Counted from the stretch's first letter, positions 13,342-22,501 are shown. The stretch is DNA of 64,000 nt from a virus (IMGVR_UViG_2773857937_000001:2960-66959), one strand, 5' to 3'. Translations and numbers: made by a program. The notes: generated by a model not told the origin, from the sequence alone.

Positions 13342-14193
13342 TTATTTGGAACTTTCGGGATTATCATTAACGGGTGATCCCTTTTTTTCTTTACGTGTGC
13401 GAGTTGTTGACGCAGCAGACTGAGCTTTTTTAGCTTCTCTAAGACGTGCAAAATTATTTTTAACATCTTCAATATCTTTAATTCTGTATATTTTAGCTTG
13501 TGGCCAGCGCTCACATATAATTGGCTCGATTGAGTCATATAAGCTGAATTTCTCTTTTTCAAACTCAGGGCTAAGAAACAAGCCGTCTCTCAGCGTCTCA
13601 TCGCAGATGAAGACGCCGCACAAGGGGACATGGTAGGGCACTGACTTCCCTCCGTTATAATTTGGGCTGGTGGAGATATAGTGAACCCTAAGCATCGTTT
13701 CATTGAAGCCATGAATACGCATACGGAATTTTTCATCTTCAGGAAATGATTCCATAAGTTTCTTTGTTTTTTCCAAATTATCTATGTATTTTTTACTCCA
13801 GTCTGTTATTTCCCCTGATTTCTGAATCCTAATATCTTTATCCAGCAGGTGAATGATTCTCTTAGCTGTCATATTCACGCTGTTAATAGCTTCAGTCTGG
13901 TATGTCGTGGCTTTTCTTACCCCTCTTAAAATATTAGGAATGGGGTATAGAATTGTTTTTGGAACATTTAGATCAGGATATTGTTCCAGTTCTTTAGCCA
14001 TAGCAGCCCAACGGTCTATATCCGCTTGAACTCGATCCGTTTCTTTGAACGGTAGTACAACTACTGGCCTAACTGAACGCCCATCGCTCGTTTTATCGAT
14101 GTGTTGTGCGCGGGCAACAGCGCTGGCAAGAAAGAGATCCCTGAATTTGACGAAGTCCCTGTACAACTGTTCGCCATACACATAATTGACCAT
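13342..14193 (-). CDS. c1: C1 repressor of lysis (immC)
   Basis: Strong similarity to recalled P1 C1 (MVNYVYGEQLY...DETLRDG...PVNDNPES). Start set at the MVNYV Met inside the longer ORF. Confidence 0.85.
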   Translation of the reverse strand: MVNYVYGEQLYRDFVKFRDLFLASAVARAQHIDKTSDGRSVRPVVVLPFKETDRVQADIDRWAAMAKELEQYPDLNVPKTILYPIPNILRGVRKATTYQTEAINSVNMTAKRIIHLLDKDIRIQKSGEITDWSKKYIDNLEKTKKLMESFPEDEKFRMRIHGFNETMLRVHYISTSPNYNGGKSVPYHVPLCGVFICDETLRDGLFLSPEFEKEKFSLYDSIEPIICERWPQAKIYRIKDIEDVKNNFARLREAKKAQSAASTTRTRKEKKGSPVNDNPESSK

Positions 14194-14287
14194 AGAGGCT
14201 CCTCCGAAAATTATAAGTATCACACCCCCCAGCACTGGATCGCCGGAGGGTGTTTATACCATTATATGAGGATTGATCAAAAAAAAT

Positions 14288-15056: not shown

Positions 15057-15073
15057 TAATTTATTAGAACAAT
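15057..15073 (-). promoter_or_regulatory. C1 operator (AATTTTATTAGAACAAT, reverse orientation)
   Basis: 15 of 17 match to the consensus. Confidence 0.6.
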
Positions 15074-15140: not shown

Positions 15141-15157
15141 ATTGCTCTAATAATTTT
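15141..15157 (+). promoter_or_regulatory. C1 operator (ATTGCTCTAATAATTTT)
   Basis: 16 of 17 match to the consensus. Confidence 0.7.
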
Positions 15158-15200: not shown

Positions 15201-15234
15201 ATAACTTCGTATAGCATACATTATACGAAGTTAT
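15201..15234. other. loxP: loxP site-specific recombination site (ATAACTTCGTATA-GCATACAT-TATACGAAGTTAT)
   Basis: An exact 34-bp match to canonical P1 loxP, including the spacer. Confidence 0.95.
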
Positions 15235-15325: not shown

Positions 15326-15432
15326 CATGAGCGAGCTACGCAAAATCTGGAAAGCTATCACCGCCGATAACTGACAGATTTCACGTAGCGCACAGTTGTG
15401 TAAAAACCAATCAATCACAGTTCGAGGTATGT

Positions 15433-16503
15433 ATGGCGCAAATAAAAAGGAACGGAAAAATAAGTATTGGTGATGCCCGGTTATGCATTTATGAAGACCC
15501 GGACCGCGTTGATGATGCTTATGAGCGCGAGTTTAAGCGAGAGGTTTTCCGCCGCATCATCCAAACGTTAAACCGCCTCGGTTGGCTGGTGGAGATCCCA
15601 CAAGACAAAATCGAGCAATACAGTGTTAGCTTCGCGCGCAATTTCCGCTATTGCACAAAAGGAGATCTTAAAGCTGACCTATCCACCTGCGGGCGTAGCA
15701 TTGAACTTGAATTCTTCCAGAGTGTAAACGCGCCGGACCGTCCTGATCACGAAGGTCGGTATCAATCGGACAAAGAAAAGCATATGCCCTATCTACTCCG
15801 CTTAGAAATGTTGCGCACCCGCAAGCGGATAATCACCTACCTGACCAACGTTTTTGACGAGTATAGCCTCGCAGAACCACACTATAGCTGGAAAGACATT
15901 GGCCCTGGCAAATTGACAAATATGGACGTCATTGAAGCCGATTACCGATCCAGTTGGCACTATCACGGCAATTGGGAAGAGTACCTGAAAAAGAACCCGT
16001 ACATGTCCAGTGGGCGAAACAGCACATCAGCAGAAGGTCATCAACTGGTCCCTGGTATGCGCGTCTGGTGGTTTGACTGGAAGGGACGGATTATGACTGG
16101 CACAGCGTGGTATCACATCAATAATATGTGGTACGTCACCTGGGGCCGCTACGGCATAAACAATATCGCGAGCTTTGAGATATTCACTCAATTACCTGAA
16201 AACCCACGAATGAAACGTAACCAGCGCCTGCGCCGCCGTAAACTGGAGGGATTGTTGGTCGATGCCATAACCAGAATGGACTACCTGCGCGCCCACGAAA
16301 TTAAGCAAATGCTCTATCCGGATAACGAGCCGCTTTATCGTCTGTTTCACACAGTCCACCAGCTTTACCACCTACCAGGATTTAATGGCTATACGAAGGA
16401 TCCCAACTACGCGGGTAAATTCCGCCGCAAAGAGGTAGAACGGTTCAGCAATGATGATAACCGCATTGAACCTGTAGGCGCTGAAGAGGAGTCCACCGCA
16501 TGA
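15433..16503 (+). CDS. hypothetical protein (356 aa, Trp/Tyr-rich) inserted between loxP and cre
   Basis: A long ORF with a GAGGT RBS and no recognisable motif. P1 has only about 0.4 kb between loxP and cre. Confidence 0.6.
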   Translation: MAQIKRNGKISIGDARLCIYEDPDRVDDAYEREFKREVFRRIIQTLNRLGWLVEIPQDKIEQYSVSFARNFRYCTKGDLKADLSTCGRSIELEFFQSVNAPDRPDHEGRYQSDKEKHMPYLLRLEMLRTRKRIITYLTNVFDEYSLAEPHYSWKDIGPGKLTNMDVIEADYRSSWHYHGNWEEYLKKNPYMSSGRNSTSAEGHQLVPGMRVWWFDWKGRIMTGTAWYHINNMWYVTWGRYGINNIASFEIFTQLPENPRMKRNQRLRRRKLEGLLVDAITRMDYLRAHEIKQMLYPDNEPLYRLFHTVHQLYHLPGFNGYTKDPNYAGKFRRKEVERFSNDDNRIEPVGAEEESTA

Positions 16504-16715
16504 AACCAAGCATAGTAGCGACCAATCTGGAGCTGGAGAAAAATCGAGGTTATTGGCGCGCAAAAGGCTTTGATCGCAAGGCATGCGACCCGTTTCTTAC
16601 GCGTGGCGATGAGGTTATAAAACGCCATAGAGGTAACTGGTGTCTATACGATGTTTCCAGTGGGCGCGTAAAAGCCGAACCAATCCTGTACACTTTATTG
16701 AAAAATATCATCTGA
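16500..16715 (+). CDS. hypothetical small protein (71 aa)
   Basis: Its start overlaps the upstream stop (ATGA). Confidence 0.4.
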   Translation: MKPSIVATNLELEKNRGYWRAKGFDRKACDPFLTRGDEVIKRHRGNWCLYDVSSGRVKAEPILYTLLKNII

Positions 16716-16722
16716 GCAGACA

Positions 16723-17751
16723 ATGACCAATTCGTTAACCGTTCATCATAATTTGCCCGCCCTCTCCGTTGAAACCACCAGCGATGAAGTGCGCGACAAC
16801 CTCAATACGATGTTTCGTGACAAAGAGGCATTTTCCGAACACACCTGGAAAATGTTGATGTCGGTTTGCCGTGCCTGGGCTGGCTGGTGCGCAGACAATG
16901 GTCATGTTTGGTTCCCGGCAAAATCAGAAAACGTCCGAGACTATTTACTGAGCTTGCAAGCACGCGGTTGCGCGGTGAAAACAATTGAACAGCACCTTGG
17001 CCAGTTAAATATGTTGCATAAGCGTGCTGGGCTGCCACGCCCCAGCGATAGCAATGCAGTATCACTGGTAATGCGACGGATCCGAAGGGAGAACGTTGAC
17101 GCCGGGGAGCGAGCAAAGCAAGCGCTGGCTTTTGAGCGAAGTGATTTTCATCAGGTCCGTGACATGCTGAAAGACAGTGACCGCGTGAAGGATATTCGCA
17201 ATCTGGCCTTCCTTGGCCTGGCTTATAACACGTTATTGCGTATCGCGGAGATCACGCGCATACGTGTTAAAGACATATCACGGACCGAAGGCGGCCGCAT
17301 ACTTGTTCGCATTGGACGAACTAAGACACTAGTCAGCACGGCTGGCGTAGAAAAAGCGTTAAGCCTGGATGTGACAAGGCTGGTGGACCGCTGGATCTCC
17401 GCGTCTGGCGTTGGTGACGATCCTGAAAACTTCCTGTTTTGCCGGGTACGCAAAAATGACGTTGCCGCGCCGTCCCCCACCAGCAAGCTAACCACGCGAT
17501 CACTTGAACATATCTTTGAGGCCGTTCACCGCACGATACATGGCGCGAAAGATGAGACTGGAGAGCGTTATCTGGCGTGGTCCGGACACAGTGCGCGCGT
17601 TGGCGCAGCACGCGACATGGCCCGCGCCGGTGTTGAGTTGCCAGAAATAATGCAGGCTGGTGGTTGGACGAACGTGAACATAGTCCTTAACTACATCCGA
17701 AATCTGGATAGCGAAACAGGCGCAATGGTTAGGCTTCTGGAAGAGGATTAA
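16723..17751 (+). CDS. cre: Cre tyrosine recombinase
   Basis: Near-full-length similarity to recalled P1 Cre (LTVHQNLPAL...HSARVGAARDMARAG...GGWTNVNIVMNYIRNLDSETGAMVRLLED). It is adjacent to loxP. Confidence 0.95.
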   Translation: MTNSLTVHHNLPALSVETTSDEVRDNLNTMFRDKEAFSEHTWKMLMSVCRAWAGWCADNGHVWFPAKSENVRDYLLSLQARGCAVKTIEQHLGQLNMLHKRAGLPRPSDSNAVSLVMRRIRRENVDAGERAKQALAFERSDFHQVRDMLKDSDRVKDIRNLAFLGLAYNTLLRIAEITRIRVKDISRTEGGRILVRIGRTKTLVSTAGVEKALSLDVTRLVDRWISASGVGDDPENFLFCRVRKNDVAAPSPTSKLTTRSLEHIFEAVHRTIHGAKDETGERYLAWSGHSARVGAARDMARAGVELPEIMQAGGWTNVNIVLNYIRNLDSETGAMVRLLEED

Positions 17752-17794
17752 AAATCACAGATTATTGATGACAACTCATCATCTCGCCCTTATC

Positions 17795-17811
17795 ATTGCT
17801 CTAATAATTTT
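17795..17811 (+). promoter_or_regulatory. C1 operator (ATTGCTCTAATAATTTT) heading the cre-ref intergenic cassette
   Basis: 16 of 17 match, 18 bp upstream of the 17829 ORF. Confidence 0.7.
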
Positions 17812-17828
17812 ATTATTTTGGTGAGCCG

Positions 17829-18143
17829 ATGACACATAAGGCCTTCAGTATCGACGGTAAAACCGTTTATCTGGCGACAGGTAAAACGCATAAATCTCCC
17901 GCCGTTGTTGTCGGCCTTAGCTTATCCGAAGACATGCCTGATTTGGCAGGTATCACAGTTGAATTTCCTATGAAGAGCCATCAAAGCGTCGAGGCCTTTA
18001 TAGCAGGAGCAACTGAAGAAACAGCCAGGCGTGGATTGGATAAGCTGGTGGAAGAGTTTGGCGATCTGATTGAAATCGTTAACAGGTGTCTGAGCCGCAG
18101 CACAGCGCAGTCACAAATGATAGAAGCACAAAGGAAACCATAG
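17829..18143 (+). CDS. hypothetical protein (104 aa)
   Basis: First ORF after the operator. Confidence 0.45.
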   Translation: MTHKAFSIDGKTVYLATGKTHKSPAVVVGLSLSEDMPDLAGITVEFPMKSHQSVEAFIAGATEETARRGLDKLVEEFGDLIEIVNRCLSRSTAQSQMIEAQRKP

Positions 18144-18301
18144 TGAGAACGATTGCTACTATTCTGACCAGCATTTTCATTGGCTGGCACGTTTGGAAGG
18201 TTTTCGCAGATCACAATGCCGATAAAGCGGGCGTTTTTGTTCTAACTATTATCGCTTTATCAGCGTTAGTAGCTCTTTATCGTTCTAACGGTAAGGACTA
18301 A
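18143..18301 (+). CDS. small membrane protein (about 52 aa, GTG start overlapping upstream TAG)
   Basis: VRTIATILTSIFIGW...LTIIALSALVALY shows two hydrophobic helices. The longer annotated ORF overlaps the upstream gene. Confidence 0.3.
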   Translation: MRTIATILTSIFIGWHVWKVFADHNADKAGVFVLTIIALSALVALYRSNGKD

Positions 18302-18414
18302 AAGAAAAAGCCCAGCTTTCGCCGGGCTGCACAGTTGGATGCAAGGATCTCTCCTGCATACCAATCAATCGCGGATGAGTATATCACACCATCCGTCAGG
18401 AACAGGAAAATGAT

Positions 18415-19179
18415 ATGGAAAAGACGTTAAACCACTCGGAGCTTAACTCCACAGAGCAGTTGGCCGCCCTTCTCGGCGTGCCAGTAGAAAAATTCCATGA
18501 CGAACTTAAGCGCCTGAAAGAGCAATCAGATGAAATGGATCGCTTTACTAATTTGATGGCCCAGGCAAGTCGCCAGCTAAAGGAAGGTGAATCGGTTGAT
18601 CTGGAGTCTTTCTTTTTCAACGGAACAATTTCAAGCATAGCGGCCTTAATGTTCGCGGCGGAGCTTGTTCGCGGGCGCGGTAAAAACTTTTACACATTCG
18701 ACTATGACCTGCCTGAATTTGGGCGAATTAACGTGACCATCCAAAAGACTGATCACAAAACACCGGCGCAGCGCATTGTCGAGCTTGAAGACGAAAACCA
18801 GATCCTAAAAGGCGAGAGTATTGCCCTTCTGACCAGCGCCGCCAATGAGCTAAATACCTCATGGTTAAACTGTAAAGCCTGTTTGTGTATGCAGGCAGCA
18901 CAACTCTGTATCTCCCAAGGTGACATCCTCCAGGCTCGCAACTGGCTGTCATATATCACTGACGACGCTGGCGCAGACATGCCAGAAGATATGACGGTCC
19001 CAGGCCTTGAAAAATGGTTTAACTCTAACATGGTAGCAAACAACGGTACTGGCGGATTCCTTACCCACAGTCAGGCCGTAGAAACGCTAAGAAAATCTTT
19101 CCCCGCCACCAGCAAAGCCATGGATGAAGCGATGACAGAGCACGTAAAGGAGACAACAAGTGAAATACATCGTGACTAA
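18415..19179 (+). CDS. hypothetical protein (254 aa)
   Basis: ORF in the cassette. Confidence 0.5.
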   Translation: MEKTLNHSELNSTEQLAALLGVPVEKFHDELKRLKEQSDEMDRFTNLMAQASRQLKEGESVDLESFFFNGTISSIAALMFAAELVRGRGKNFYTFDYDLPEFGRINVTIQKTDHKTPAQRIVELEDENQILKGESIALLTSAANELNTSWLNCKACLCMQAAQLCISQGDILQARNWLSYITDDAGADMPEDMTVPGLEKWFNSNMVANNGTGGFLTHSQAVETLRKSFPATSKAMDEAMTEHVKETTSEIHRD

Positions 19180-19329
19180 TTGTGTCTTAGCAGCGCTGCT
19201 CTTAATAGTAGCGCTTCTTCGCGGGGAAAATAGTTTGTGGCTTGGTGCCGTAATTCTGATGAGTAATTGCTACATGGCCAGCAGACTAAATTATTTGGAA
19301 AAACTGATTAAATCCCAAGGGAAGCCATT

Positions 19330-19950
19330 ATGAAAAAAGAAGATATGGTGATGTACGATTCTCCTGAAGCCGCCAGCATTCAGACCGTAACTGGCTGGGT
19401 AGATCGCCATGGCAAATTTTGGGGGGACGATGAACATATGGCGCGCTGGTGCGGTAGCACACACCAGAAATGCGAGAACAATCCCGAACATCCTATTCGT
19501 GAAAGTAAAGGCTATTGTGAAGCCTGCCGTGATGAACGTCAGCATGCACTCTACATGGCCATGGAACGCCAGCCGTGGGACGGCGACACAATGCTGCACT
19601 TGCACAACACTGACGTCTATTTTCAAGATCTGGATAGCATTCGCGACCACTGCTTAGAACGGCACGTATTACCAGAGGAGCTACAGCTGGTGGTATGTAA
19701 CCCAACCTATCCGTCGGAGATCGATGGTTGCGATCACTTTTGCGATGACCTGCCTGAAGATGGTGAGTTACCAAGCGAACTGCAAGAGGCATTTGACCGG
19801 CTTAACGAAGTTATTCGCAAGTGCCCGCCGCTATCTTGGTTCCCTGGCGAGATTGCCGCCATTCTACCGGATGGTGTACTGAGCGCAGAAGAGCGTCATG
19901 ATATTGAAATAGCGCGTCAGGAGGCTGTCGGTGTTAATGACACAAATTGA
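19330..19950 (+). CDS. hypothetical Cys/His-rich acidic protein (206 aa)
   Basis: ORF with CENNPEH...CEACRDERQH and CDHFCDD motifs. Confidence 0.5.
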   Translation: MKKEDMVMYDSPEAASIQTVTGWVDRHGKFWGDDEHMARWCGSTHQKCENNPEHPIRESKGYCEACRDERQHALYMAMERQPWDGDTMLHLHNTDVYFQDLDSIRDHCLERHVLPEELQLVVCNPTYPSEIDGCDHFCDDLPEDGELPSELQEAFDRLNEVIRKCPPLSWFPGEIAAILPDGVLSAEERHDIEIARQEAVGVNDTN

Positions 19951-20386
19951 CGCCTCGCAGTTGACCGGACCCGCCCTTGATTGGGCGGTAGCCAAAGCCC
20001 TGGGATATACCATTTTCATGGCAAACCACGATAGAGGTGATCACCGATGGCCTGGCAATGGTCATATAGTCGCACTGACGGCGCAGCACAGCGTGATCAT
20101 AGTGGGAACCACCAGCTACATCACTATCGAGGGGCCGGATGCAGTTGAAGCATGGCAGCCGACGGTTAAATGGTGCCAATGTGGACCGCTGATCACTCGT
20201 TACCTGATTGAGATAAGCCACGAGCTGGTGGGCCAGGACAAAAGTGTCTGGTATGGATATAACGTACTATTGGATGGATGGTATAGCGCCGATACTCCAC
20301 AGGAAGCGGTATGTATTGCCGCTGTAATTTCCGAACTAGGGAGAAATGTGGACGTACCAATTGAATTACTGGAGAAAAAGCACTGA
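19931..20386 (+). CDS. DUF2591/NinX-like phage protein (151 aa)
   Basis: An N-terminus LTGPALDWAVAKALGY, which I recall from NinX-family prophage proteins. This is memory-based. Confidence 0.4.
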   Translation: MLMTQIDASQLTGPALDWAVAKALGYTIFMANHDRGDHRWPGNGHIVALTAQHSVIIVGTTSYITIEGPDAVEAWQPTVKWCQCGPLITRYLIEISHELVGQDKSVWYGYNVLLDGWYSADTPQEAVCIAAVISELGRNVDVPIELLEKKH

Positions 20387-20712
20387 TGACCACACGTCAC
20401 ATTTTCTTTCTGCTGGTGGCCAACCTGGTGATTTCCTCGCAGGGCGATGACGGCCTATCAATTTGGTGGATGATGTTCCTCTCTTGCTACTTCATCGTTT
20501 TCATCGGCATAGCACGTCGTAGTTATTCGGCTGAAGCCCGCCTGCATGATAAATACGTGTCTGACATACGGGCTGAGTTGGTTGTCGGAAAGTTAAGGGC
20601 GCGTTTCACGCGGATATTAAAGCGTACGGGATGGTGTGATAAGGGATCTGAGGGGACTACTGGACTCGCTCTTGCAAGGGAATACGTCAGGGACTGCATT
20701 AGTTCGAATTAG
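20386..20712 (+). CDS. membrane protein (108 aa, two TM helices)
   Basis: Hydrophobic stretches FFLLVANLVISS and WMMFLSCYFIVFIGI. Confidence 0.45.
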   Translation: MTTRHIFFLLVANLVISSQGDDGLSIWWMMFLSCYFIVFIGIARRSYSAEARLHDKYVSDIRAELVVGKLRARFTRILKRTGWCDKGSEGTTGLALAREYVRDCISSN

Positions 20713-20717
20713 ATTTA

Positions 20718-20734
20718 ATTGCTCTAATATTTAT
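20718..20734 (+). promoter_or_regulatory. C1 operator (ATTGCTCTAATATTTAT), Op2-like, upstream of ref
   Basis: 14 of 17 match. Confidence 0.65.
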
Positions 20735-20788
20735 GTATAATTAGAACTTCGAAGGAACTGTCTACAACAACATTGCCAAACTCCTCCT

Positions 20789-20814
20789 GACGGTCTTCGG
20801 GCCGTCTTTTTTTT
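20789..20814 (+). terminator. hairpin GACGG-TCTTCGGG-CCGTC followed by T8 (intrinsic terminator/attenuator) between operator and ref
   Basis: Read directly. Confidence 0.55.
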
Positions 20815-20827
20815 GGGCGTGATTACA

Positions 20828-21385
20828 GTGAAATTGACAGAAGAACAGATTAAACGGCAAAGACAACGAGCCAATGAGGCATCGCGGAAGGCAATTGCCA
20901 GGCAACGAGAAAAATTGGCTGATCCCGTCTGGCGTGAAGAGCAGTACCGCAAGCGCCGAGAATCAGAAGCCAAAAGACGCGCGCGTAAACTCAACTCCCC
21001 TCCTTCCCCACCAGCGAAACCACGTAAGCCGATAAAATCACGTGGACTCAAAGGCCGTACGCCCAACGCCGAAGAGCGCCGTATTGCAAAAGCACTCGGC
21101 GCGCTACCGTGCATTGCATGCTACATGCACGGTGTGATCACAACGGAGATCTCCCTCCATCACATTGAAGGAAGAACCGCACCAGATTGCCACAAGAAAC
21201 AACTCCCTCTATGCAAGTGGCATCACCAGCACACAGCGCCGTTGGAAGTACGAAAGATTTATCCGTGGCTGGTGCCGGTACATGCAGATGGCAATGTAGG
21301 TGGTAAATCCGAATTTTCCCGCCTTAACAAGCCGGAAAGAGAACTGCTGGTGGATGCATATTCCCTGGCTGGTTTATTAGTCTAA
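20828..21385 (+). CDS. ref: Ref recombination enhancement function (HNH endonuclease)
   Basis: Strong similarity to recalled P1 Ref (IARQREKLADPVWRE...LPCIACYMHGVI...SLHHI.GRTAP.CHKKQLPLC.WHHQH.AP.EVR..YPWLVPVHADG). GTG start chosen by alignment with the P1 N-terminus. Confidence 0.8.
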   Translation: MKLTEEQIKRQRQRANEASRKAIARQREKLADPVWREEQYRKRRESEAKRRARKLNSPPSPPAKPRKPIKSRGLKGRTPNAEERRIAKALGALPCIACYMHGVITTEISLHHIEGRTAPDCHKKQLPLCKWHHQHTAPLEVRKIYPWLVPVHADGNVGGKSEFSRLNKPERELLVDAYSLAGLLV

Positions 21386-21661: not shown

Positions 21662-22501
21662 TTGATAAGGCGAACTATCATGAAGAATGCAAATACCCCA
21701 CCTGTACAGTTCACTACCTGGAGACATAAAGAAACTAATAACGAACTGATAGGTTATTTTTGCTCTGGAGATCCAAGCATCTTAAATGCCGTCCTGAGCT
21801 ATTTTGGACGCGGGGATTTACAGCATGCTTATCCTTCCGAAACATGGGTAATGCTCAATCCGAAAAATGGCGCGATGTATTTTTGTAACTCTGAAGAAAT
21901 TGAGAAAGACTATACCCCTGCAACCGATACCCAAATAACCCTTTCCCCTATAAAAGATTTTGAAAAATACAGTTCTTCTGATGAGGTGGTAGAGGCTCTG
22001 CAAATCCCTTTATTGGGCGGTATTCGCCGTTTCATTGGGCTAACCAATATTGATTTAACATTACGTTTGTCACCGCAAGATATGTATGTTTCCGTACAAA
22101 CGAATGTCATTAGAAAGAGTGAACCACCACAGATTGTAGCACTCCCTGGCGACTGGATAGTGAAGCATGCCGATGGCAGTTTTAGTGCATGCACACCTGA
22201 AATTTTTGAGGCCACTTATAAATTCATTGATATTGAGTCTGCTGATTTTTCTGATGCACTGATGTGGCTGAAAGAAGGAAAACGTGTTGCACGTAAAGGC
22301 TGGAATGCTGGCGGCCAGTTCTGCTGGATGGTCCCGGAAGGACAATACCCGGCGCGGATGGAAGCAATCAAGGGTTATTACCCTACTGATACCGTCCCCT
22401 ACGGAGCGTACTTTGCACTGAAAAATGCCCAGGATGTGGTAGTGCCGTGGGTTCCGTCAATTGGTGATCTTCTTGCAACTGACTGGATTGTTCTCGCATG
22501 A
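21662..22501 (+). CDS. two-domain protein: unknown N-terminal domain + C-terminal DUF2829 (Tad2-like) domain
   Basis: The C-terminal roughly 90 aa read ALMWLKEGKRVARKGWNAGGQFCWMVP...YFALKNAQDVVVPWVPSIGDLLATDWIVL. This matches the recalled DUF2829 pattern (..AL..GKKVARKGWNG...lvPWv.sq.DLLAeDW.iv). Confidence 0.5.
   Translation: MIRRTIMKNANTPPVQFTTWRHKETNNELIGYFCSGDPSILNAVLSYFGRGDLQHAYPSETWVMLNPKNGAMYFCNSEEIEKDYTPATDTQITLSPIKDFEKYSSSDEVVEALQIPLLGGIRRFIGLTNIDLTLRLSPQDMYVSVQTNVIRKSEPPQIVALPGDWIVKHADGSFSACTPEIFEATYKFIDIESADFSDALMWLKEGKRVARKGWNAGGQFCWMVPEGQYPARMEAIKGYYPTDTVPYGAYFALKNAQDVVVPWVPSIGDLLATDWIVLA

Follow-up and report, generated by a model that had tools for sequence, protein, structure and literature searches.

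In bacteriophage P1 (NC_005856, nt 436-2637) the recombinase gene cre stands in the order cra, cre, c8, a spacer with hairpins, the operator and promoter of ref (Oref/Pref), a leader hairpin with a T-run, and ref, and the 609 bp between cre and ref hold a single gene, c8, whose product is annotated as 'establishment of lysogeny, putative'. The same order is found in a 64,000-nucleotide stretch of viral DNA (IMGVR_UViG_2773857937_000001:2960-66959; this whole stretch is called the window in the following), but here the interval between cre and ref is ~3.06 kb long and contains seven genes. This interval, for which an initial annotation had proposed a C1-controlled cassette of unknown function at positions 17795-20734 with a possible role against host defences, is the subject of the present analysis.

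Other described systems resemble the cassette in part. The exo-xis regions of lambda and Shiga toxin (Stx) phages and the ea genes of P22 (Ea22, Orf60a/61/63, Ea8.5, Ead, Eaa, Eae) likewise consist of small, mosaic and non-essential early genes behind repressor-controlled promoters (PMC7093339). In lambda, Ea22 is pro-lysogenic and orf60a/61/63 as well as ea8.5 are pro-lytic. The exo-xis genes belong to the first ones to be transcribed, and they influence lysogenisation (PMC7093339, PMC3824215, PMC10834534). Anti-defence loci such as Lar/Ral, Tad2 and Dar/Ulx/Hdf of P1 share with the cassette an early expression (predicted for the cassette), small acidic or, in the cassette possibly, zinc-ribbon proteins and a replacement of genes slot by slot. 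Finally, the C4 antisense RNA of the P1 immI region, which is short and structured, has a promoter and an intrinsic terminator to itself, and with a single-stranded segment it is complementary to repeated sites that adjoin ribosome-binding sites in phage mRNAs (in P1 the targets a1/b1 and a2/b2 are annotated). The same properties would return in a candidate small RNA (sRNA) located inside the cassette, which is described below.

We consider it probable (about 0.65) that the cre-ref interval is a C1-repressible early operon composed of c8 and a lineage-specific, mosaic cargo of lambdoid-type accessory genes, acting on infection or induction. In this operon a C1-covered, sigma-70-like promoter would drive the c8 homologue and the translationally coupled o52, and after a spacer without a plus-strand terminator transcription would continue into an overlapping block of five genes, o254-o57-o206-NinX-o108, ending at the operator/promoter and leader hairpin of ref. 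The products would be non-enzymatic binders (acidic, His/Cys-motif, coiled-coil or small membrane proteins), made only without C1, just after infection or induction, and acting on host or phage processes at that time. The features of the locus are as follows, with protein lengths in amino acids (aa) and SD standing for Shine-Dalgarno sequence:

15407..15416, plus strand: CCAATCAATC, the exact complement of the 5' end of the candidate sRNA, 8 nt 5' of the SD of the 356-aa gene o356
17768..17796, plus strand: predicted sigma-70-like promoter of the c8 operon (-35 ATGACA, 17-nt spacer, -10 TATCAT; 10/12 matches)
17795..17811, plus strand: putative C1 operator ATTGCTCTAATAATTTT, deviating from the consensus at one position and lying across the -10 and the probable start of transcription
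17829..18143, plus strand: c8 homologue, 104 aa, with homology to P1 C8
18143..18301, plus strand: o52, small membrane protein of 52 aa, GTG start overlapping the c8 stop (ATAGTG)
18300..18371, minus strand: candidate sRNA of ~70 nt, with 5' end GAUUGAUUGG, a stem-loop, a GUGCAGCC linker and a terminator hairpin (18309-18328) with U-run
18378..18388, minus strand: putative extended -10 promoter of the sRNA, TGTGATATACT, invariant as TGTG[A/C]TATACT
18415..19179, plus strand: o254, acidic, largely helical, two modules
19160..19333, plus strand: o57, small membrane protein of 57 aa, GTG start, SD AAGGAG, overlapping both neighbours
19330..19950, plus strand: o206, acidic, with a His/Cys motif that is conserved in its family, which is widespread in prophages
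19931..20386, plus strand: NinX-family protein, 151 aa (PF10765)
20386..20712, plus strand: o108, membrane protein with a basic C-terminal tail, start overlapping the NinX stop (TGATG)
20718..20741, plus strand: ref promoter/operator, i.e. an Oref-like C1 operator (20718-20734, three mismatches) and then a -10 TATAAT (20736-20741)
20789..20814, plus strand: GC hairpin and T8 in the ref leader, terminator or attenuator

Judged by their substitution patterns all seven open reading frames (ORFs) are real genes. In comparison with three relatives every one of them is under purifying selection, with ratios of nonsynonymous to synonymous substitution rates (dN/dS) of 0.05-0.26 where dS is unsaturated, and with proportions of nonsynonymous differences (pN) of 0.2-0.4 vs synonymous ones (pS) of at least 0.75 where it is saturated. 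SD sequences and overlapping stop/start codons (ATAGTG, ATGA, TGATG) are present across the ORFs, the five genes from 18415 to 20712 overlap successively, and six of the seven ORFs match PHROG families. A reading of the ORFs as non-functional remnants or annotation noise could point to the shortness of several of them and to o57 and o108, which the public annotation of the identical contig leaves out. It is contradicted by the dN/dS values, obtained near synonymous saturation, by the family matches and by the translation signals, so that we give it practically no weight. The GC content of the cassette shows no compositional anomaly, and a recent foreign origin is unsupported by composition.

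The operators at 17795-17811 and 20718-20734, the hairpin with T8 at 20789-20806 and the ORFs of 104, 52, 254, 206, 151 and 108 aa are all located where the initial annotation had placed them. Its count of six genes was one short, as the 57-aa ORF at 19160-19333 (82% identical in Cronobacter phage JK004, dN/dS 0.09) had been missed, and its description as a cassette of unknown function holds for the other products but has to be corrected for the first gene. The 104-aa ORF is a homologue of P1 C8 (49% identity over 98/104 aa, E 1e-32; phrog_1968, E 1.5e-33; dN/dS 0.10-0.21), which also matches C8 of P1, P7, SJ46 and RCS47 in tblastn and lies directly 3' of cre on the same strand, as it does in P1. 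Furthermore, only c8 is found between cre and ref in P1, whereas cra, previously assigned to the same interval, lies 5' of cre; the cra homologue of the window (16500-16715, 68% identity to P1 Cra) is also 5' of cre.

The nearest relatives of the region are JK004 and a handful of Salmonella enterica plasmids. JK004 genes 53-59 (MZ188976) and the plasmids p21-SA00706-0 and pCFSAN058588 carry the cassette at the same place and with the same operator, although their products are only 40-89% identical to those of the window. In these records the cassette genes are annotated as 'hypothetical' except for NinX and a 'lysogeny establishment protein'. In order to place the cassette within the family we measured the cre-to-ref distance in 80 Cre-encoding loci from IMG/VR. 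The two genes are 604-648 bp (~618 bp) apart in about 60 loci of P1 proper, corresponding to c8 only, and 2.2-3.1 kb were found in the JK004/Salmonella sub-lineage only, the added stretch relative to P1 being ~2.4 kb. The insertion relative to P1 that had been noticed at first is thereby borne out, and the comparison across P1-like phage-plasmids, suggested at the same time, restricts the cassette to this sub-lineage. A megablast search with the cassette gave no match among 50,697 phage records and matched only five Salmonella plasmids (77-81%), so the cassette is rare and no common feature of P1. The cre-ref interval is missing from the eight variable regions that a published survey of P1-like phage-plasmids distinguished (PMC9603915). 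Going by these comparisons, the cassette is genuine and lineage-specific, with the same arrangement in sequenced relatives, and everything after c8 is cargo that P1 proper lacks: P1 has neither o52 nor the five-gene block, and the lineage of the window in addition has the 356-aa gene ahead of cra.

Within the sub-lineage c8, o52, o206 and o108 are present in every member, and the o254, o57 and NinX slots vary. Plasmid pCFSAN058588 is without o254 and o57, p21-SA00706-0 is without o57, and o57 is found only in the window and JK004, being absent from the loci L001, L002 (both Salmonella plasmids) and L008 (from IMG/VR). The NinX slot holds NinX here and in two plasmids and is empty in L008. JK004 (locus L004) has in its place a 155-aa Lar-like protein (L004 17960-18427), which is not homologous to NinX and carries an N-terminal Lar-like domain (PF14354, E 2e-9, 37.9 bits vs a cutoff of 28.6; phrog_599, 'host takeover'). 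The insertion point of the five-gene block coincides exactly with the edge of the candidate sRNA element on its promoter side. Some P1-group loci, too, have other sequence in place of what lies to the right of this edge, so that the right edge of the spacer appears to be a cargo site family-wide. In a P1-proper subset (L009, L014, L022, L026, L034, L039, L050, L054 and L076) ref is missing to the right of the spacer and a minus-strand gene of ~350-370 aa (MRTSLVTREEMIEAIEQH...) replaces it; at the spacer junction L021 has a ~3.3-kb insertion with a recombinase-like gene and L040 a 1008-aa transposase-like ORF (Tn3-like element).

The relatives of the cargo genes are located in the early-left 'exo-xis/ea' regions of lambdoid prophages and of SSU5-like phage-plasmids, and NinX is named after a gene of the P22 nin region. 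The cargo is mosaic slot by slot and was probably imported from early-left regions of lambdoid and SSU5-like temperate phages. The cassette as a whole is an early accessory or 'moron' gene cluster of temperate phages, with gene families that are already catalogued but uncharacterised.

The proposed control by C1 starts from the 17-bp asymmetric operator consensus ATTGCTCTAATAAATTT, which has ten matches in the window vs 0.3 expected, a number that none of 100 shuffles reached. In all members of the sub-lineage the operator at the c8 promoter is found at the same offset of +44 nt from the cre stop, and it overlaps the -10 (TATCAT/TATTAT; here 17791-17796), which is 17 nt from the conserved -35 TTGATGACA; both promoter elements are kept in L001, L002, L004 and L008. 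No further plus-strand promoter-like site was found in the cassette by a consensus scan, and a terminator scan found no plus-strand terminator before 20789, also not after o52. Because of this, and because the genes overlap, C1-repressible early expression is the best reading of the signals. C1 control of the operon, claimed from the beginning, thus remains plausible from the operator that all members of the sub-lineage have over the -10, and its basis is the sequence. In P1 the homologous site GATTGCTATAATTATTTG / ATTGCTATAATTATTTG (1484-1500) is degenerate, with four mismatches, and forms a perfect TATAAT rather than an operator; it is unannotated as operator. It therefore seems that c8 is under the control of C1 in this branch but not in P1. 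The P1 record places a predicted c8 promoter inside cre instead.

The second operator and the terminator, taken at first as the closing elements of the cassette, are as in P1 the own control elements of ref, as read from their arrangement, and mark no cassette boundary. The operator lies just 5' of the TATAAT at 20736-20741, like Oref within P2ref of P1, an arrangement kept in the relatives, and P1 has the equivalent leader hairpin (GGCGGCC...GGCCGCC and T8) immediately before the ref ATG. Ref itself is clearly recognised (PF16786, E 1.4e-42; ORF 20813/20828-21385). The mechanical ORF opens at a TTG at 20813 within the T-run of the leader hairpin, and the start of P1 Ref (MKTIEQK), JK004 (185 aa) and the public annotation all favour GTG 20828. 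The start of ref is most likely this GTG, giving 185 aa as in JK004 and the public annotation.

Turning to the products, for the 151-aa protein the NinX likeness seen initially is supported by PF10765 (E 1.6e-8, 35.2 bits vs a gathering cutoff of 22.6, model positions 2-113/114) and phrog_4389; the literature on NinX consists of mentions in genome annotations that give no function. Nothing beyond NinX was found among the seven products in Pfam and NCBIfam, and PADLOC-DB gave no family at E<=1 for any of them. In agreement with the first description no enzymatic motif was recognised in Pfam, NCBIfam, PADLOC or by fold search. Fold and profile searches, of the kind proposed initially, returned the NinX and c8 homologies and no fold neighbour for o206 and o254, and searches of PDB sequences with NinX, o254 and c8 gave spurious matches to repeat proteins only.

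The Cys/His-rich nature of o206 is confirmed by 9 Cys and 11 His. The protein is very acidic (net charge ~-26, with 44 Asp+Glu vs 18 Lys+Arg) and belongs to a family of at least 243 proteins, no member of which has a Pfam domain, with ~50% identity in prophages of Pseudomonas, Xenorhabdus and Yersinia. H45, C48, C63, C66 and C123 are invariant in 51 sequences; the criterion used for a zinc ribbon or treble clef was four metal ligands in HxxC...CxxC spacing. A profile of o206 matched the ribosomal zinc-ribbon protein L37e weakly (E 0.12) among PDB sequences. The fold is confidently predicted, without a PDB fold neighbour, and a structure search of BFVD returned only its own family. Homologues of o206 are found between exo/RecT/Gam/SSB and xis/int, i.e. 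at the exo-xis position, in three unrelated temperate phages, namely a Pseudomonas prophage, a Xenorhabdus prophage and phage CobraSix.

The second large product, o254 (39 Asp+Glu vs 24 Lys+Arg), is composed of two modules that are found separately in other proteins, and it is predicted as a coiled-coil protein, its model consisting mostly of long helices without a meaningful structural neighbour in the fold search. Its N module follows a Pfam Ead_Ea22 domain (PF13935) in protein P0165, and homologues are found in SSU5-type phage-plasmids, surrounded by Ead/Eaa/Eae/Ea22-like genes; for o254 itself PF13935 gave no match at E<=1. Acidity of this kind is a typical trait of inhibitors that mimic nucleic acids, but no other property links o206 and o254 to that class. 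The three small products have hydrophobic segments. That of o52 (phrog_28190, E 5.6e-26; 62-69% identical in relatives, dN/dS ~0.2; absent from P1) comprises residues 26-48. In o57, whose homologue gene_56 of JK004 is annotated, it is the N-terminal half, and in o108 (phrog_19219, E 2.8e-26; 40-43% identity in relatives, dN/dS 0.26) it is residues 23-44. The latter is fast-evolving, with practically no relatives beyond the lineage: only two close homologues of o108 were found among 5.8 billion proteins.

Regarding the specific function of the cargo, neutralising host defences and biasing the lysis-lysogeny decision appear about equally supported by the analysis. A strict anti-defence island, in which most of o254, o206, NinX and the membrane proteins would each inhibit one immune system and would be expressed before the phage DNA becomes vulnerable, is a possible but rather unlikely reading. 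In its favour are the predicted early timing under C1 control, the Lar-like restriction-alleviation protein in the NinX slot of JK004, the Tad2-like domain protein 0.9 kb downstream, the acidity of o206 and o254, which recalls DNA-mimic inhibitors, and the slot-by-slot replacement that is typical of counter-defence loci. All this is guilt by association. None of the seven products matches Lar (PF14354), Tad2-like (PF11195) or another named anti-defence family in Pfam or PHROGs (no dedicated anti-defence hidden Markov model set was searched), and o206 with ~50% identity from Enterobacteria to Pseudomonas is unusually conserved for an arms race. The interpretation of the initial annotation is therefore only partly supported: for its anti-defence part only the context (the Lar-like protein of JK004, the Tad2-like ORF at 21662-22501, the acidity) speaks, and no product falls into a known family. 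We regard it as similarly unlikely that the added genes form a lysis-lysogeny tuning module, which would extend the function of c8 in the way of the lambda exo-xis genes and bias the decision or the host physiology. This idea is about as good as the previous one because the relatives of the cargo sit in exo-xis/ea regions, whose characterised genes tune this decision (PMC7093339). It gains from the block being apparently co-transcribed with, and directly following, the c8 homologue, from the fusion of the N module of o254 to Ead/Ea22 domains and from the o206 relatives at the exo-xis position of three unrelated phages. However, o254 shows no Ead_Ea22 match even at E<=1, no product of the window is homologous to any characterised exo-xis protein, the function of P1 c8 is only putative and P1 proper manages without the added genes. 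In comparison with the lambda, Stx and P22 regions the backbone here is that of a P1-type myovirus-plasmid, with C1 instead of CI as repressor.

Small inner-membrane proteins are typical exclusion factors, and three of the seven products are small membrane proteins. One could thus suppose that o52, o57 and o108 block incoming phages or alter the envelope in the plasmid state, as in lysogenic conversion or superinfection exclusion. We consider this improbable: the sole plus-strand promoter-like site is covered by the operator, so the membrane genes of the cassette should be silent in the lysogen, and they are translationally coupled to cytoplasmic partners and have no PADLOC match. The reading as a C1-repressible early operon with accessory cargo has its own weak points. 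C1 binding at 17795-17811 is deduced from a consensus match alone, a consensus scan could miss an internal constitutive promoter, and the convergent sRNA promoter/terminator pair in the spacer could uncouple the five downstream genes from the c8 promoter. The functional part appears to depend on gene neighbourhood and the analogy to lambda exo-xis, and c8, with its own function only 'putative', is the sole homology to a characterised protein.

The interval is also not purely same-strand, as had been assumed, because the spacer at 18302-18414 carries a minus-strand promoter/terminator pair. This spacer of 113 bp aligns with the c8-ref spacer of P1, including the GGCTGCAC and CCAATCAATC blocks, and is the best-conserved segment of the interval, being 90-91% identical to L001/L002, vs 64-75% for the flanking genes. 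The terminator hairpin has its U-run on the minus strand only. The extended -10 TGTG[A/C]TATACT is invariant in all sequence variants of ~84 P1-family loci and is accompanied by an invariant GATTGATTGG ~7 nt beyond. The first stem-loop of the putative transcript has unrelated sequences in the P1, Salmonella and JK004 branches and folds at the same place (folding z about -3 in three lineages), and GTGCAGCC is conserved between it and the terminator hairpin. All eight pairs of the terminator stem are kept in 15 of 15 sequences, with one compensatory change U-A<->C-G and one G-C<->G-U; the latter fits the minus strand only, since it would give a C·A mismatch on the plus strand. This covariation comes from three independent lineages only and has low statistical power. 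The P1 counterpart lies at about 1830-1912 of NC_005856.

Searches for further relatives of the element gave no match in Rfam at E<=1 over 17600-21000 and no new lineages by blastn of the spacer against plasmids, and the pattern GATTGATTGGN{14,32}GTGCAGCC, scanned over 596 Gb of contigs, was too degenerate, the matches listed being chance ones in unrelated taxa. Such an RNA is not mentioned in the part of the literature covered, i.e. the P1 annotation, a 2025 review of phage sRNAs and a P1vir/hfq transcriptome preprint.

The 10-mer CCAATCAATC has two copies in the window, in the spacer and at 15407-15416, and matches with one mismatch occur at chance rate. The second copy is 8 nt 5' of the SD of o356, the head gene of the o356-cra-cre operon. 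In P1 (nt 186-195) and ~75 P1-group loci it stands directly before the SD of cra, and in L001, L004 and L008 before the o356 homologues. For the P1 type two copies were counted in ~60 kb (the P1 record from 1-50 kb pooled with P1-group loci upstream of cre). In JK004 and L008 an additional copy directly precedes the ref ATG, and L001 and L002 have one ahead of a 68-aa ORF. Positions noted for the 10-mer in these relatives are 13419 and 18863 of L004 and 2984 and 3223 of L001. The 10-mer is constant between lineages and its flanks differ. Duplexes predicted for the o356, cra and ref sites have -20 to -27 kcal/mol and rank in the top 0.4-1.6% of random windows; the site at the 68-aa ORF is weaker (-19.5 kcal/mol, 3.8%).

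From these data we suggest tentatively, and at somewhat less than even odds, that all P1-family phages including P1 may encode an undescribed sRNA of ~70 nt, transcribed from the minus strand of the spacer behind c8, which in the window separates o52 from o254. Through its invariant 5' end GAUUGAUUGG the RNA would base-pair with CCAAUCAAUC, a short distance 5' of the SD of the gene that opens the cra-cre operon, and in some lineages also at ref or at a small post-lox ORF. The c8 transcript, controlled by C1, runs towards the sRNA gene from the opposite strand and would contain a perfect complement of ~70 nt. It might thus act as sponge or as RNase III partner, and when infection or induction sets off the c8 promoter, the sRNA would be titrated or destroyed. 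Translation of Cre (and Ref) could in this way be coupled to the repressor state. The sRNA gene is probably part of the cra-cre operon control and not cargo. In contrast to C4, it has another locus and sequence, belongs to no Rfam family, and is convergent to the c8 operon instead of being processed from its target transcript. A protein-binding DNA or RNA motif common to the two leaders and a plus-strand structure that stabilises the mRNA are possible alternative readings of this element, as is a duplication scar. The pair of CCAATCAATC copies as a target-site duplication or recombination scar flanking the cre module was rejected as main reading, because the 10-mer is invariant while its flanks diverge, every extra copy has the same orientation and lies directly before a start codon, and one copy is embedded in a promoter and terminator unit.

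The region belongs to a Salmonella phage-plasmid, whose place in the P1 family shows in Cre, C1, the operators and lox. Cre (16723-17751) is 81% identical to P1 Cre and the C1 repressor gene (13342-14235, minus strand) encodes a protein 77% identical to P1 C1, at a DNA identity of the region to P1 of only ~72%. An identical 206-aa protein is encoded on a 90-kb contig of NCBI assembly GCA_012540605.2. The sequence of the site at 15201-15234 is that of canonical P1 loxP. Ahead of it lie two matches to the C1 operator (15141-15157, plus strand, one mismatch; 15057-15073, minus strand, two mismatches), a pair that corresponds to the immC/coi-c1 control region of P1. Between loxP and cra the 356-aa gene o356 (15433-16503, plus strand) is an insertion of the sub-lineage that is absent from P1 and has no Pfam match; it took over the leader that precedes cra in P1, including the CCAATCAATC motif and a conserved GTAGCGCAC block. 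Just 3' of ref and a 77-aa ORF, 0.9 kb past the cassette, a 279-aa ORF (21662-22501, plus strand; 216 aa in the public annotation) has a Tad2-like domain (Thoeris anti-defence 2, PF11195, residues 195-277, E 7e-21). Most elements of the D6 group and about half of those of the P1 group are reported to carry Tad2 (bioRxiv 10.1101/2025.09.12.675607).

In summary, a side branch of the P1 family uses the junction of cre and ref as a cargo site, and lambdoid 'exo-xis/nin' accessory genes appear to have come there under the control of the P1 C1 repressor. The cassette offers a compact and naturally switchable set of seven unknown early genes. Among them o206 represents a family with hundreds of members from Salmonella to Pseudomonas and a predicted fold without a solved relative, so that knowing its function would improve the annotation of many prophages in one step. 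The locus gains in value through the candidate sRNA, as this RNA concerns P1 itself and the native regulation of cre. If the sRNA is real, native Cre/lox, the most widely used site-specific recombinase system, would have an unnoticed post-transcriptional regulator and P1 would gain a second antisense circuit besides C4, and this by-product may matter more than the cassette.

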